NCBI GenBank assembly: GCA_050175015.1
Contig: JBFXJJ010000003.1
Coordinates: forward strand, 145,998 to 209,997
Direction: 5' to 3'
DNA: 64,000 nucleotides
From: Alphaproteobacteria bacterium
GTDB lineage: Bacteria > Pseudomonadota > Alphaproteobacteria > JBFXJJ01
Positions 48,807-56,398 of the stretch are shown piece by piece (position 1 is the stretch's first letter; each line of letters begins with the position of its first letter). The notes below the pieces were generated by a model. That model did not search any database. It saw only the letters and a list, made by a program, of their open reading frames with translations, and was not told the DNA's origin. The translations under genes were made by a program, and so were the position numbers.

Positions 48807-50927
48807 ATGAAGATGAGTATTAAAAACGCATTCAGCTTTATATTAAATCTTAGAAAAACACTAAGATTTCTGACTTTGTTTTTAGTCATTGCGGGTTCGT
48901 TTGTAATAGTTAATCCTGCAAATGTTATAGCAGCAGATTCATCAACATCTTGTCCTGCTTCCGATCCTTATTGTTTTTTACCAGCAGCGGTTGCCCCAGA
49001 AAATATTAACTGGGAACAGTTCAATAGTTGGCCTAAAGGTGCTCAACAAGAATATTCTAGAAGAGTTGCCAACTATGAAAGAGAAAAAGCTCTTGCTTCT
49101 GGAGCTACACTTAATGAAGCTCGTAAAGCTTATGAAGAAGCAAAGGATAAAGTCGATTCTAAAATTAAGGATAGTTCAGAGGGTGATGATTGTGAAGACC
49201 CTAAATCTTTAATTGATGAATATACGCAGGTTTGCAATACCTGCGTCGTTTTTGGCGAAGTTTTTAATGCTTTAAGCACAATGTCCGAGAGAATTTATGA
49301 TGCGGTTGCGCCTAGTGCCGCTAAGTTGATTGGGGCTTGTTTGTTAGTATGGCTTGCTTTTCACATTATGAAAGCTGTCAGCTCTGTTGCTCCGATTGAA
49401 CCTGGAGAGTTTTGGAAAACAGCAACTGTTCAAGTTTTTACAGCAGCTTTTGCGTATTTTGCCTTAACAACAGGAACGCAAGTGTATGGTTACCTCATGG
49501 AGCCTATTATTTCTGGCGGCTTTGATTTTGCTACAATTGCAATAAGAGCGGCAAGTGGCAATGGCAATACTAGCTTGTCCTGCACAACGCAAAGTGTTTA
49601 TGGTGGTGGTATCTTTACTGAGGAAATGCATCAGTCATTAGATTGCTTAATTCAAGAAATTCAAAATTCGTTAGCTGAAGTAAGGGCGTTAGGTGTGACA
49701 CTTATGTGTGTTGCAACAACAACAGGAAAAGGTTCTTTTGGAATTCCTGATATTGCTATGTGGGCTTCTGGAGGAGTTATTTGGATAATCGTTATGATTA
49801 TGCTTTTAGCTGTTCCTTTCTATTTGTTTGACTCTCTTATTAGATTCGGCGTTGTTGGTGCGATGCTTCCATTGCTTATTGCAGCTTGGGCTTTTCAAAT
49901 TACACGTAGTTTTGCGACAAAGGGCTTTAATATGCTGCTTCACGCAACAATGTCTTTTATCGCTGTTACTATTATTGTGGCGATAGATATTCAGCTTGTA
50001 GTTTCGATCTTTGAAAAAGATGAGAATTCGATAACGACAGCAATTAATAGCGGTAGTGTTTCTGAAATTAAAGATATGTTTGATTTTGGTGGTTTTAGAT
50101 TCCTGCTTTTACTCGCTTGTGGTTTCTTTGCAGTTAAACTTTTAGGAAAAGCCTCAGAAATAGCTGCTCATTTTGGTAATGCCCAATTTACTGGAGCTGC
50201 GCCGATGATTGGCGGAATGATGGTTAATGGGGCTAAATCTGTGGCTAAAAGTGCGGGAACGGTAGCTGGTGCAGCGGTTATAAATGTTGGTGGAGCCGCT
50301 ATCAAAGCTGGGGGAAAAGTTGCCTATAATAGATTTTCAAGAACGGAGGCAGGACAAAAGGTTAATAGTTTTGGCCGTAAGATGAAAAATTGGGGCGCAG
50401 GTGGTGATTTTAAGGATCCTATGGCTCAAAATAAAAAAGGAGATACCGCAGGTTCTGGTAATAATCCAGCTAATTTAGCTAAAGATGCAACTAAAGCATT
50501 GGGAACTAATGATGCTAACAAAGCAGGTTCAGCTTCTAATAACTCTAATAATAAAAAAGCGGATAATTTTGAACAAAAACAGTCTAAGAAGCCTAATCGT
50601 ATGAATAGCAAGAATTGGCGTGATGATAAAAATAATGCACAGACTCAGCAGACAGCATCAACTGGCGCTGGCAATGTGGCTCAGAATCAAGCGCCGCAAG
50701 TCGGGACTATATCTCAGGGACAACCAGTTCAAGGGCAACCAGCAACGGCAGCTCAAGCCGCAACAGGAACTGTTCAAACGCCTCAAACTCCGGTTCAACC
50801 GCAGCAAGCTGCGAATATAACAGGAGCCGCAGCTCAAACCAAGTCTACAAGTAGTGGTGCCGCTGCTGCTAAAAATATAGGCAAGGGAGCTGGAGGTCTT
50901 GGTGGTGCTGGGGGACTAAAGAAATAG
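48807..50927 (+). CDS. VirB6/TrbL-like polytopic membrane protein, paralog 1, with N/Q/A/G-rich C-terminal tail
   Basis: Signal/TM anchor, a periplasmic Cys-containing N-domain (CNTCVVFGEVF), a PGEFWK motif, and a 5-6 TM core (IWIIVMIMLLAVPFYLFDSLIRFGVVGAMLPLLIAAWAFQIT). Followed by a ~250 aa low-complexity tail. Confidence 0.65.
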   Translation: MKMSIKNAFSFILNLRKTLRFLTLFLVIAGSFVIVNPANVIAADSSTSCPASDPYCFLPAAVAPENINWEQFNSWPKGAQQEYSRRVANYEREKALASGATLNEARKAYEEAKDKVDSKIKDSSEGDDCEDPKSLIDEYTQVCNTCVVFGEVFNALSTMSERIYDAVAPSAAKLIGACLLVWLAFHIMKAVSSVAPIEPGEFWKTATVQVFTAAFAYFALTTGTQVYGYLMEPIISGGFDFATIAIRAASGNGNTSLSCTTQSVYGGGIFTEEMHQSLDCLIQEIQNSLAEVRALGVTLMCVATTTGKGSFGIPDIAMWASGGVIWIIVMIMLLAVPFYLFDSLIRFGVVGAMLPLLIAAWAFQITRSFATKGFNMLLHATMSFIAVTIIVAIDIQLVVSIFEKDENSITTAINSGSVSEIKDMFDFGGFRFLLLLACGFFAVKLLGKASEIAAHFGNAQFTGAAPMIGGMMVNGAKSVAKSAGTVAGAAVINVGGAAIKAGGKVAYNRFSRTEAGQKVNSFGRKMKNWGAGGDFKDPMAQNKKGDTAGSGNNPANLAKDATKALGTNDANKAGSASNNSNNKKADNFEQKQSKKPNRMNSKNWRDDKNNAQTQQTASTGAGNVAQNQAPQVGTISQGQPVQGQPATAAQAATGTVQTPQTPVQPQQAANITGAAAQTKSTSSGAAAAKNIGKGAGGLGGAGGLKK

Positions 50928-50988
50928 CACTCAACGATTGTTTGGTTTTGTAAGAAGTAAGGTAATTAATTTTAATAAGGCTTAATAT

Positions 50989-54338: not shown

Positions 54339-54367
54339 AGTTGAAAGTATTTTTTAGGATTTAAAAA

Positions 54368-56398
54368 ATGATGTGGCAAAAAAACATAGTTAAAAAAGTA
54401 AAACAAACAAAACCAGTTTTTGTTTTGCTTGTGGCTGTTTGTTTTATCTTTGCTAATATCTTTTTTGCAGGCAGCGCAGAAGCTCAAACTAGAAATAGCG
54501 GCTGCTATACGGCAAAAGACTATGTTAATATAAATAGTGAATGTTTTCTTTGCCCAATGTTCAAAAAGATTTTTGATACTTTCAGTGTCATGGGTGAAAA
54601 TATTTATAACAGTACGGGAACAGCCTTAGCGAGTGTTATTGCTTGGGGATTTATGCTCTGGCTTATAATTTTAGTTCTGAAAGTTGTTTCTTCTGTAACG
54701 CCAGTAAGTCCTGGAGAGATGTTTACTCGTATGGGCAAACAGCTTTTTAGGGTGATTTTAGCAATGGCTTTTTGTAAGGCATCACCTTCAATTATTTTTG
54801 GTTATATTGTTGAGCCAGTTTTAATTACGGCATTTTCTTTTGCGACAGCAGTTAGTGGTGCAAATTGTGATAGTTTGCCAACGTATGTTAATGAAAGCGG
54901 TATCTTTTCTGGAGATTTAAGTACAGCTTTAGTTTGTATGATAACAGCTGTTCAAAATGTTGTAGGGTTTATTCAAGGTATAGGCGGATATTTAATCTGT
55001 GTTTCTTGGAGCGCTGGTTGGTGGGGGCTTTTGCCAGCTTTTGGACCATTGATTTCAGGTATTGTGCTCTATGTAACTATGTTAATTATTATCTTTAATT
55101 ACACATTACAAGTAATTGATGCCTTATTCAGATTAGCAATGTTTTGTGCATTGATGCCATTGTTTATTGGTGCCTGGGCTTTTGATATTACGAAGTCGTT
55201 TGCCCAAAAAGGCTGGGAAATGCTCGTTTCAGTTTCTGTGACATTTATTTGTTTGGCTCTTGCTATATCAATGTCATTCTTTATGTTTGATGTTATTTTT
55301 AGCGGTGGTATGTCAGAACTAGTAAGCGCGGTTAACAGTGATGATGTTGCTTTTTTAGGCGAGGCTTTTGAAGTTTCAGGGCTTTCCATTGTAAAGGTTG
55401 TCATTATTTGTATTTTTAGCTGTGCTATTATTTCTAAGGCTCCAGCTTTTGGTGATCATTTTGCCGAGGTAAGTTGGCGCTCCGATGACGGCCCTGCTGC
55501 TCAACTTGGTGAAATGGCTTTTGCAGCAATGGATCCATTTGATAGACATAGTATGGCTGGAAGAAATTTAAGAGTACTTGGTGGTGCTGCTCAGAAGGGA
55601 GCTTCAAAAGTAGGCGATGCGGTTGGAACAGTTATTGGAAATCGTATGCGCCGCAATTCGTCTCAATCTGGTGGTCAAGGCGCTTTTGGCGCTGGTGGTC
55701 GAAAAAATCCTGCCTTTGCAGGAGCTGGGGCAACAGGGAAAGCTGCGGCTAACAATTTAGCCGGTGCGGCTAAGGCAGCTGGAGCTTTAGGTAAACCATC
55801 GTCTGGTTCAGGTACGGCTTCAAATTTAGGTTCAAACTCAGGTGGTTCAGGATCAGGTTCAAGTTCAAGCTCATCTTCTGGAGGCGGAAGTATTTATGAT
55901 GCAGGTTCGGGTTCAAGTAATGCACCTAATTCATCTAATGCTCAGAGTTCAACGGTAGCTGCTACGGCATCTGTAGCAGCGGCATCAGGGCTTAATATTC
56001 CAAATAATCCGCAAGTCTTAGCCGCAAATAATCCTGCTCCTCCTATTCATCAAGGGCATGGAATCAATGTTGCGGCTTTAAAAACGCCGCCTCCTGCCAG
56101 TGCTTCCAACTCTAAGACGGTATCAGCTTCTGAGTTTACAAGCAGTATGGCGGATATTAAGCGTGAATTTGTAAAAGATTTACTTACTCAAGATCCTGAA
56201 GAAAAAAGATTCTTAAGGCACAGGTATCGTGAGTATGAAAGAGATTGGCGTCGCAGAGAATATATGGCTCAGCAAAAGGCTAAAAGAGATCAACTTAATA
56301 AACAATTATTCCAAAGAGAGCAGGAAAAATTAAGAAAACAAAGAGTTGAACAAGAAAAGACGCTTAAAAAATTAAAGGAAGAAGAGAAAAAAGATTAG
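54368..56398 (+). CDS. VirB6/TrbL-like membrane protein, paralog 4, with Gly/Ser-rich then charged coiled-coil C-terminal tail
   Basis: CFLCPMFKKIF, PGEMFTR and a TM core NYTLQVIDALFRLAMFCALMPLFIGAWAFDIT. The tail has GSGSGSSSSSSSGGGS and ends ...RKQRVEQEKTLKKLKEEEKKD. Confidence 0.65.
   Translation: MMWQKNIVKKVKQTKPVFVLLVAVCFIFANIFFAGSAEAQTRNSGCYTAKDYVNINSECFLCPMFKKIFDTFSVMGENIYNSTGTALASVIAWGFMLWLIILVLKVVSSVTPVSPGEMFTRMGKQLFRVILAMAFCKASPSIIFGYIVEPVLITAFSFATAVSGANCDSLPTYVNESGIFSGDLSTALVCMITAVQNVVGFIQGIGGYLICVSWSAGWWGLLPAFGPLISGIVLYVTMLIIIFNYTLQVIDALFRLAMFCALMPLFIGAWAFDITKSFAQKGWEMLVSVSVTFICLALAISMSFFMFDVIFSGGMSELVSAVNSDDVAFLGEAFEVSGLSIVKVVIICIFSCAIISKAPAFGDHFAEVSWRSDDGPAAQLGEMAFAAMDPFDRHSMAGRNLRVLGGAAQKGASKVGDAVGTVIGNRMRRNSSQSGGQGAFGAGGRKNPAFAGAGATGKAAANNLAGAAKAAGALGKPSSGSGTASNLGSNSGGSGSGSSSSSSSGGGSIYDAGSGSSNAPNSSNAQSSTVAATASVAAASGLNIPNNPQVLAANNPAPPIHQGHGINVAALKTPPPASASNSKTVSASEFTSSMADIKREFVKDLLTQDPEEKRFLRHRYREYERDWRRREYMAQQKAKRDQLNKQLFQREQEKLRKQRVEQEKTLKKLKEEEKKD

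Follow-up and report, generated by a model that had tools for sequence, protein, structure and literature searches.

The window analyzed here is a stretch of 64,000 nucleotides (nt) of contig JBFXJJ010000003.1 (positions 145,998 to 209,997 of the forward strand), from the metagenome-assembled genome (MAG) GCA_050175015.1 of an alphaproteobacterium. It contains an array of four tandem, co-oriented open reading frames (ORFs) on the + strand, which span positions 48807-56398, are separated by intergenic gaps of 61, 20, and 29 nt and are annotated as hypothetical in the NCBI MAG record. These four paralogs, named p1 to p4, show an N-terminal hydrophobic signal, predicted from sequence hydrophobicity, a core common to all of them and a C-terminal tail which is different in each one (Table 1). 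As they are co-oriented and closely spaced, the four genes and a small gene located upstream probably constitute one operon; a scan of the array for promoters and terminators gave the same counts as shuffled sequences and was uninformative on operon structure.

The core is hydrophobic and has approximately 325 amino acid residues (aa), with pairwise identities of 24-34% and 26 invariant columns among p1-p4. A first-pass annotation, made from the letters alone, had described the proteins as VirB6-like, and this description was upheld, but only indirectly, by two lines of evidence. Among 50 scanned members of the wider family, 37 matched Pfam PF04610 (TrbL/VirB6) at E ≤0.01, with a best E of 1.8e-11; p1, p2, and p3 themselves matched it below the gathering threshold. 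In the NCBIfam scans, three family members matched PRK13852, a type IV secretion system (T4SS) protein, and one matched TrbL, while the paralogs themselves showed no match. The second line is structural. AlphaFold models of p4 and p3 showed cores with a predicted local distance difference test (pLDDT) of 80-90 and 80-88, respectively, and were compared by Foldseek with the PDB as target library. The best match of p4 was TrwI/VirB6 of R388 (8rt9_F; E 8e-5, probability 1.0, template modeling score (TM-score) of 0.58 by target over 317 columns), and the top five PDB matches of p3 were all TrwI/VirB6 (probability 1.0, TM-score of 0.45-0.59). Other PDB folds did not exceed a probability of 0.25 for either protein. 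Because most of the scanned relatives match PF04610 and TrwI/VirB6 is the sole confident PDB fold, we conclude from the profile comparisons and predicted structures that p1-p4 belong, as divergent members, to the TrbL/VirB6 superfamily.

Four cysteines of the core are invariant: two form a CxxC motif just before the first membrane helix (aa 143-146 in p1, 47-50 in p2, 137-140 in p3, and 59-62 in p4) and two are found in the large loop (C280 and C301 in p1). The CxxC is also invariant in 50 family members, and the pattern suggests that these cysteines may form periplasmic disulfides or bind a metal. To our knowledge, this motif has not been described for canonical VirB6. In addition, p1, p3, p4, and most relatives show a tryptophan in the sequence A-W-A/V-F, which precedes a conserved T-x-x-F-x-x-K-G; p2 has a phenylalanine in its place. 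This tryptophan is a candidate counterpart of the functionally essential one of Agrobacterium VirB6. An invariant aspartate (D251 in p4) and a mostly conserved Arg/Lys (position 255 in p4) lie inside the long hydrophobic helix predicted at 225-270, which fits a helix packed against protein rather than embedded in lipid.

The tails of p1 to p4 have 249, 71, 213, and 310 aa, respectively. The first-pass annotation had assigned a different low-complexity tail to each paralog: all the peptide strings that it quoted are present in p1-p4, and the span that it gave, 50150-56398, is essentially right, since at position 50150 approximately nine residues of the p1 core are still to come. The tail of p1 is composed of 18% A, 14% G, 10% N, 10% K, and 9% Q, and that of p2 of 23% A, 18% G, 14% V, and 11% T. 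In p3, Ala and Lys amount to 26 and 16%, and the tail of p4, with a net charge of +15, shows 15% A, 13% S, and 12% G followed by a stretch with 58% of K/R/E/D. The window has 38 ORFs with 200 aa or more; among them, segments of 40 aa with an entropy ≤3.0 bits were found only in p1-p4 and in one GGDEF protein, so that the tail observation is real and specific. The tails are not meaningfully alignable with each other, with a global identity of 19% (vs. 24-31% for the cores in the same comparison) and local z-scores of 2.7-3.6, about the level of shuffled sequences. Neither the tails nor the N-terminal extensions gave a meaningful match to Pfam or to PDB sequences; an alignment of the tails to structured domains of known function, which would have refuted the first-pass interpretation, was thus not found. 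The other low-complexity protein of the window is a membrane PAS-GGDEF protein of 1027 aa (39605-42688, + strand), whose C-terminus shows strongly acidic repeats (YDELPAEE... motifs, in long units) and then a basic K/V/P-rich end.

The sole weak PDB match of the p3 tail was a designed coiled coil (E 0.046). This tail matches itself at an offset of 7 with a score of 178, vs. 47.8 ± 8.6 in shuffles, and in its heptad rows positions 0 and 3 are taken by Ala or hydrophobic residues and positions 2, 5, and 6 by Lys. Its hydropathy has a period of 3.6 with a power of 88, vs. a shuffle 95th percentile of 44, and it is modeled as a helix with pLDDT <50. By its residue pattern, the p3 tail is a region of heptad, coiled-coil-like periodicity. 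The first-pass annotation had placed the coiled coil in p4 instead, and there it was not recovered: in aa 610-676 of p4 the power at a period of 3.5-3.6 does not reach the 95th percentile of shuffles, and in the best heptad register only nine of 26 a/d positions are hydrophobic. The residues 610-675 are modeled as one helix (pLDDT 92-95), and the end of p4 appears to be a single charged helix, not a classical coiled coil. In the same model, aa 385-585 have a pLDDT <50 and are read as a disordered linker. The hydrophobic stretches in the tails of p2 and p3 could have indicated a general extra membrane helix; this was rejected, since only three of 145 family tails show such a segment.

Table 1. 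Features of the VirB6-like array in the window and of genes in or next to related arrays.
Feature	Residues (aa)	Position (nt)	Strand	Remarks
Small 72-aa protein		48571-48789	+	Two hydrophobic helices; 17 nt upstream of p1
Paralog 1 (p1)	706	48807-50927	+	Signal peptide, periplasmic N-extension of ~85 aa, core, tail
p1 VirB6-like core	128-457	49188-50177	+	TrbL 19.2 bits, below the gathering score
p1 tail		50178-50924	+	249 aa, A/G/N/K/Q/T-rich, net charge +20
p1 tail Q/P/T-rich stretch		50685-50807	+	Includes QTPQTPVQPQQ
Paralog 2 (p2)	414	50989-52233	+	Start possibly 50992 or 51007; short tail
p2 lipobox VSAC	24-27	51058-51069	+	Lipobox kept in every related array
p2 VirB6-like core	30-343	51076-52017	+	TrbL profile positions 19-213 of 215 covered
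p2 tail		52018-52230	+	71 aa, A/G/V/T-rich, net charge 0, acidic end AGDGNGN
p2 tail hydrophobic Gly/Ala/Val segment		52090-52158	+	
Paralog 3 (p3)	694	52254-54338	+	Signal peptide, N-extension of ~85 aa, core, tail
p3 VirB6-like core	122-481	52617-53696	+	AlphaFold; Foldseek TrwI/VirB6
p3 tail		53697-54335	+	213 aa, Ala 26%, Lys 16%, net charge +30
p3 tail heptads, about 25		53799-54323	+	Broken by a hydrophobic stretch at 54054-54122
Paralog 4 (p4)	676	54368-56398	+	Signal peptide, core, 310-aa tail
p4 VirB6-like core	44-366	54497-55465	+	AlphaFold; Foldseek 8rt9_F
p4 disordered linker	385-585	55520-56122	+	pLDDT <50
p4 Gly/Ser tract	493-508	55844-55891	+	Within linker
p4 KTPPPA motif		56081-56098	+	Within linker; TPPP invariant among orthologues
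p4 C-terminal charged helix	610-675	56195-56392	+	58% K/R/E/D; character kept in orthologues
L004 lipobox paralog		8504-9760		
L005 lipobox paralog		9974-11215		
L006 lipobox paralog		3893-5209		
L007 lipobox paralog		3510-4778		
L008 lipobox paralog		1883-3313		
L006 split paralog		5213-5740 + 5737-6939		
L007 split paralog		4790-5353 + 5367-7712		
L008 small upstream ORF		~51-263		
L006 small upstream ORF		1597-1794		
L007 small upstream ORF		1196-1483		
L004 double-HTH protein		12701-13672		
L005 double-HTH protein		13601-14518		
L006 double-HTH protein		9417-10394		

Comparison with orthologues shows that the tails keep their type. Between p2 and its orthologue P0153, the tails are 77% and the cores 68% identical, so that the tail is the more conserved part. 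Its hydrophobic Gly/Ala/Val segment is conserved, the AGDGNGN end is also found in an orthologue with 61% identity, and the p2-like paralogs of the related arrays L004 and L005 (25% identity) show the same short, Ala/Val-rich tail. The p4 orthologues P0002 and P0006 show a core identity of 55% and a tail identity of 24-29%. Common to the three proteins are a proximal EVxW, a TPPP without variation and, at the C-terminus, a charged K/R/E helix in which columns are conserved, while the linker varies: it has a Gly/Ser tract in p4 and a NANANA run in P0006, and is approximately 70 aa shorter in P0002. The p1 orthologue, found on L009, is 62% identical in the core, 48% in the N-extension and 25% in the tail, which has 274 aa and the same Q/T/P/A flavour as that of p1. 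Linkers therefore diverge faster than cores, as tails are 24-29% identical where cores are 55-62% identical. The correlation of composition between orthologous tails was 0.49, 0.97, 0.61, and 0.73, vs. −0.45 to 0.16 between the paralogs of the window. An origin of the tails in frameshifts or mis-called ORFs was rejected, since frames, tail types and motifs are kept in the orthologues.

Variation between strains was studied in six strain-level pairs taken from related clusters with at least 90% identity. Tail mismatches were 0.4-2.6%, core-like, and only a single tail indel of 10 aa was observed, so the tail variability predicted between near-identical relatives did not appear. A second strain of the source organism was not found: both metagenome scans were empty and the Logan contig was identical. 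Slippage-prone repeats had also been proposed at 55800-55900, but the DNA under the p4 Gly/Ser tract only shows imperfect GGTTCA-like hexamers (4.8 copies, 82% match). Other repeats in tail DNA are short, weak rows with scores of 31-36, located in the p2 tail and beside the Gly/Ser tract; no tandem repeat was found in the p1 and p3 tails, and no long perfect tandem repeat in any tail. The rapid evolution claimed for the tails is therefore limited to the linker sequence, given that tail type is kept, strains show no excess variation and perfect repeats were not found; the part of the claim that stands is the faster divergence of linkers than cores, and the part that falls concerns tail type, length class, composition and end modules, all conserved. 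Because orthologue groups retain the length class, the composition, the charge and the end module from one species to another and the linkers drift, the alignments have shown the tails to behave as functional modules which would be constrained in type, not in exact sequence. A contingency or antigenic-variation mechanism appears unlikely from these sequences. None of the present results supports the surface exposure, processing, host-interaction or antigenic roles suggested in the first-pass annotation, whose interpretation therefore holds only in part.

The wider family was revealed by an exhaustive search with the core profile; word-indexed searches with p4, a 50-sequence alignment and a 26-sequence core-only alignment gave three, four, and six matches, respectively, probably because candidates were capped. 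The family has at least 1785 representatives (50% identity clusters) at E ≤1e-3, 600 of them at E ≤1e-30, and is mostly unannotated and mostly below the Pfam and NCBIfam thresholds. Among the 151 best representatives, 148 show a complete core followed by a C-tail, and the disordered C-tail is thus the rule of the clade and not a peculiarity of this locus. In these 148 proteins, C-tails range between 48 and 1250 aa (median 258) and in nearly all cases consist mainly of G, A, K, N, Q, and S, and N-extensions range between 6 and 594 aa (median 191). A survey of net charge in the representatives P0004-P0151 found acidic N-extensions in 88% of 114 proteins and basic C-tails in 81% of 145, with a median of +9.

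A scan of genomes with the alignment of p2 orthologues found two distant MAG loci. Related tandem arrays contain three (L004 and L005), five (L006), six (L007), and four (L008) paralogs; L004 and L005 belong to uncultured Alphaproteobacteria MAGs, the latter from a Hadza gut metagenome. Within each related array the tails differ between paralogs, and the last paralog of L004 and L005 ends in a highly charged stretch. Every array also has one paralog of about 410-480 aa with a lipobox (VSAC, LTAC, LGAC, or LSAC), which comes second in the window, L004, L005, and L008 and whose tail, in the window, L004, and L005, is short and contains a hydrophobic segment rich in Ala/Val. Its presence once per array indicates that the lipoprotein paralog is old and conserved. 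Furthermore, one paralog of L006 and one of L007 are split: the N-half lies in an ORF of 175-187 aa, and the C-half of the core in the ORF that follows. This second ORF additionally encodes, in L007, a cell-wall hydrolase domain (PF07486), a feature reminiscent of VirB1.

Homologous small ORFs with two hydrophobic helices (65-95 aa) immediately precede the arrays of four independent loci (the window, L008, L006, and L007) and share a V/L-G-x-P motif after helix 2. The small ORF showed no match to Pfam, VirB2 and VirB3 included, and a scan that admitted E values up to 10 gave no T4SS protein. This protein may be a partner of the array, pilin-like or VirB3-like.

Upstream of the 72-aa ORF, the window shows MurL- and MurD-like genes and a DUF676 hydrolase gene. 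The MurL-like epimerase gene (PF26299 and PF26298) overlaps the MurD-like ligase gene (44688-47406, + strand), an arrangement of the alternative peptidoglycan route in which L-Glu is added and then epimerized. The array is followed by SpbR/DUF2336, with no equivalent of the double-HTH_3 (Cro/C1-type helix-turn-helix) protein of about 305-325 aa that is located just downstream of the arrays in L004, L005, and L006 and may be a regulator. Other genes of the window encode PmbA, a thiolase, a Lon-like protease, xanthine dehydrogenase and hydantoinase-type proteins, FtsY, Ffh, RimM, TrmD, L19, BamB, Der, and response regulators. An ORF of 1405 aa (50-4267, + strand) and another of 386 aa (38277-39437, − strand) showed no Pfam match at E ≤1e-3. 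This neighborhood probably belongs to a metabolically richer organism which is not obligately intracellular. The flanks of the related arrays mostly contain Pfam-negative unknowns that recur between loci.

Taking these results together, we propose, with a probability of about 0.65, that the array encodes four extended VirB6-like inner-membrane proteins and a small two-helix protein, and that the tails are constrained modules. Each paralog would have a Sec or lipoprotein signal, a VirB6 core of ~325 aa and a paralog-specific C-extension, disordered or extended-helical, and p1 and p3 would bear an additional acidic N-extension, which must be periplasmic because it follows the signal peptide. In TrwI of R388 only alpha1 and alpha2 are in the membrane and the rest forms the base of the periplasmic stalk (PMC9259494, PMC11294453, PMC12857230). 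By analogy, the cores may form a pentameric platform that is held in the inner membrane by its first two helices, with the rest in the periplasm. There is about an even chance that the tails emerge on the periplasmic side and extend, as long tethers or spacers, towards the outer-membrane complex. Candidate spacers are the ~25-heptad helix of p3, the ~200-aa linker plus 66-aa charged helix of p4 and the Q/P/T-rich stretch of p1. Putative analogues are found in F TraG, with its C-domain, and in Anaplasma VirB6-3 and VirB6-4, whose C-terminal repeats are trypsin-accessible (PMC7648143); an extracytoplasmic position of the tails would follow from the R388 VirB6 topology together with these extracytoplasmic extensions.

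Several observations weigh against this proposal. Against a PF04610 gathering threshold of 25.9 bits, p1, p2, and p3 score 19.2, 20.8, and 18.9 bits and p4 has no match; the core profile found no match among PDB sequences, and the models of p3 and p4 were built on alignments of only 12 sequences. The p1 and p3 tails have one informative orthologue or none. A search for T4SS genes that covered the 64-kb window and the flanks of L004-L008 found no VirB3, VirB4, VirB8-B11, or VirD4 in the window and no T4SS gene within about 10 kb of the related arrays, and the unknown neighbors in L004 and L005 gave no match to VirB2, VirB3, VirB4 or other T4SS proteins in Pfam at E up to 10. With no other T4SS gene near the array, its membership in a working T4SS is an assumption. 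Finally, the tails of p1, p3, and p4 are basic (+15 to +30) and the N-extensions acidic, an asymmetry that under the positive-inside rule and the five-transmembrane (five-TM) topology of Agrobacterium VirB6 would put the tails in the cytoplasm, and the loops of p4 likewise fit five TM segments, the acidic loops being on the outer side and the basic C-end in the cytoplasm.

The charge data therefore lead to a competing arrangement of the same proteins, with an N-out, five-TM, C-in core. Cytoplasmic tails could bind the anionic inner leaflet through the Lys/Ala helices of p3, contact the VirB4, VirB11, or VirD4 ATPases, or capture acidic substrates or DNA. The acidic N-extensions (88%) and basic C-tails (81%) of the family agree with it, as do the charges of +20, +30, and +15 in the window. 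Against this, the p2 tail is uncharged overall, and Lys-rich regions that span the periplasm are known in TolA and TonB. The C-terminus of Agrobacterium VirB6 was placed in the cytoplasm by fusions (Jakubowski et al. 2004, cited in PMC2653234), whereas cryo-electron microscopy of R388 places everything past VirB6 alpha2 in the periplasm (PMC9259494, PMC12857230) and the extensions of F TraG and of Anaplasma VirB6-3 and VirB6-4 were found to be extracytoplasmic by experiment (PMC7648143). We infer that a periplasmic location is to be favored over a cytoplasmic one, which we regard as a serious candidate at somewhat less than even odds.

The remaining explanations are all less probable. It is rather unlikely that these VirB6-fold proteins and the small two-helix protein serve a different envelope machine of non-rickettsial Alphaproteobacteria, outside the T4SS. 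Such a role would agree with the lack of recognizable T4SS genes in the 64 kb and beside the L004-L008 arrays, with the recurrence of Pfam-negative neighbors and of the double-HTH protein downstream in L004, L005, and L006, with the small two-TM gene kept upstream in four loci, and with the size of a mostly unannotated family (at least 1785 representatives). However, the absence of nearby T4SS genes is not decisive, because the T4SS genes of Rickettsia are scattered in islets (PMC2653234), and absence within 10-50 kb says little; the sole confident structural match is a T4SS stalk subunit, and the L007 relative fuses a cell-wall hydrolase domain to a VirB6-like core, recalling VirB1. Equally improbable, in our view, is a conserved module of non-rickettsial, uncultured Alphaproteobacteria, human-gut MAGs included, without linkage to virB3, virB4 or other T4SS genes, which would consist of the small two-helix protein, the short-tailed lipoprotein paralog and long-tailed paralogs, the last one charged-ended in several arrays. 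It would act as a stand-alone machine or as a VirB5-less T4SS platform in which the tails form the stalk, for example with a ~26-nm Ala/Lys coiled coil of p3 and the linker plus charged helix of p4 spanning the periplasm. The least probable explanation is that the tails are antigenic-variation or contingency regions subject to repeat slippage under host immune pressure. The faster divergence of linkers, the imperfect short repeats of the p4 Gly/Ser tract, the NANANA run of P0006 and the repeat number of Anaplasma virB6-4, which differs between strains (PMC7648143), would be expected from it, but the best DNA repeat is an imperfect one and the p1 and p3 tails have none, orthologous tails keep composition and end modules, and the six strain pairs have core-like tails with one 10-aa indel. 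Furthermore, there is no sign of host association, and the neighbors encode metabolic enzymes (xanthine dehydrogenase and hydantoinase-type), a GGDEF protein, and response regulators.

The proposal of extended VirB6-like proteins with constrained tails has several consequences. According to a recent review, the contribution of the extra domains of extended VirB6 proteins to T4SS structure or function is still unknown (PMC12857230). The present array extends this architecture well beyond the cultured Rickettsiales. Its tail flavours are old and each belongs to one orthologue group (a lipoprotein with a short tail, a tail of Ala/Lys heptads, one rich in Q/P/T, and one made of a linker and a charged helix); they are not arbitrary drift. 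The family charge asymmetry, acidic at the N-terminus and basic at the C-terminus, is relevant to the dispute over VirB6 topology. The position of the tails, the spanning of the periplasm and the binding partner of the terminal helix are testable hypotheses, and the hypothetical-protein genes of the window can be annotated as VirB6-like.

Rickettsia-like bacteria already provide examples of the extended VirB6 pattern, to which this locus adds another. RvhB6a-e of Rickettsia and VirB6-1 to VirB6-4 of Anaplasma and Ehrlichia are arrays of extended VirB6-like paralogs (PMC2653234, PMC7648143), and the resemblance noted in the first-pass annotation is confirmed when architectures are compared with these published descriptions. 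As here, the Rickettsiales arrays consist of four to five tandem, highly divergent VirB6/TrbL paralogs of an alphaproteobacterial host, alignable only in the hydrophobic core, with large paralog-specific hydrophilic N- and C-extensions, at least five hydrophobic helices, predicted signal peptides and some predicted lipoproteins. Nevertheless, the virB6 array of Rickettsiales follows virB3-virB4 (islet A or the sodB-virB3-virB4 operon), whereas the present one follows the 72-aa two-helix ORF, and these paralogs, unlike those of Rickettsiales, fall below the Pfam TrbL threshold. Anaplasma VirB6-4 has 4,322-9,935 aa, and the tails described here are far shorter and without tandem DNA repeats. The genes around the array also point to an organism with a richer metabolism, which is not obviously intracellular.

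R388 TrwI and Agrobacterium VirB6, with about 300-340 aa, share with p1-p4 the core fold (as judged from the R388 matches of p3 and p4, with TM-scores of 0.54-0.59 by target length), an N-proximal helix pair, a large loop and hydrophobic helices, but only 10-15% identity with the cores. These minimal VirB6 proteins lack a cleavable signal, the CxxC and a long tail, and are encoded as a single copy in a complete virB operon. Domain II of TolA and the TonB linker are, respectively, an Ala/Lys-rich helix and a Pro-rich rod, which span the periplasm from an inner-membrane anchor. A functional analogy may be drawn with the ~175-aa heptad region of p3 and with QTPQTPVQPQQ of p1; no sequence homology was detected. 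F TraG and SXT TraG, like these paralogs, combine a polytopic VirB6-like N-part with a large hydrophilic C-part, which is extracytoplasmic in TraG (PMC7648143). The C-domain of TraG is folded and acts in mating-pair stabilization and entry exclusion, whereas the tails of p1-p4 are of low complexity and mostly predicted to be disordered.

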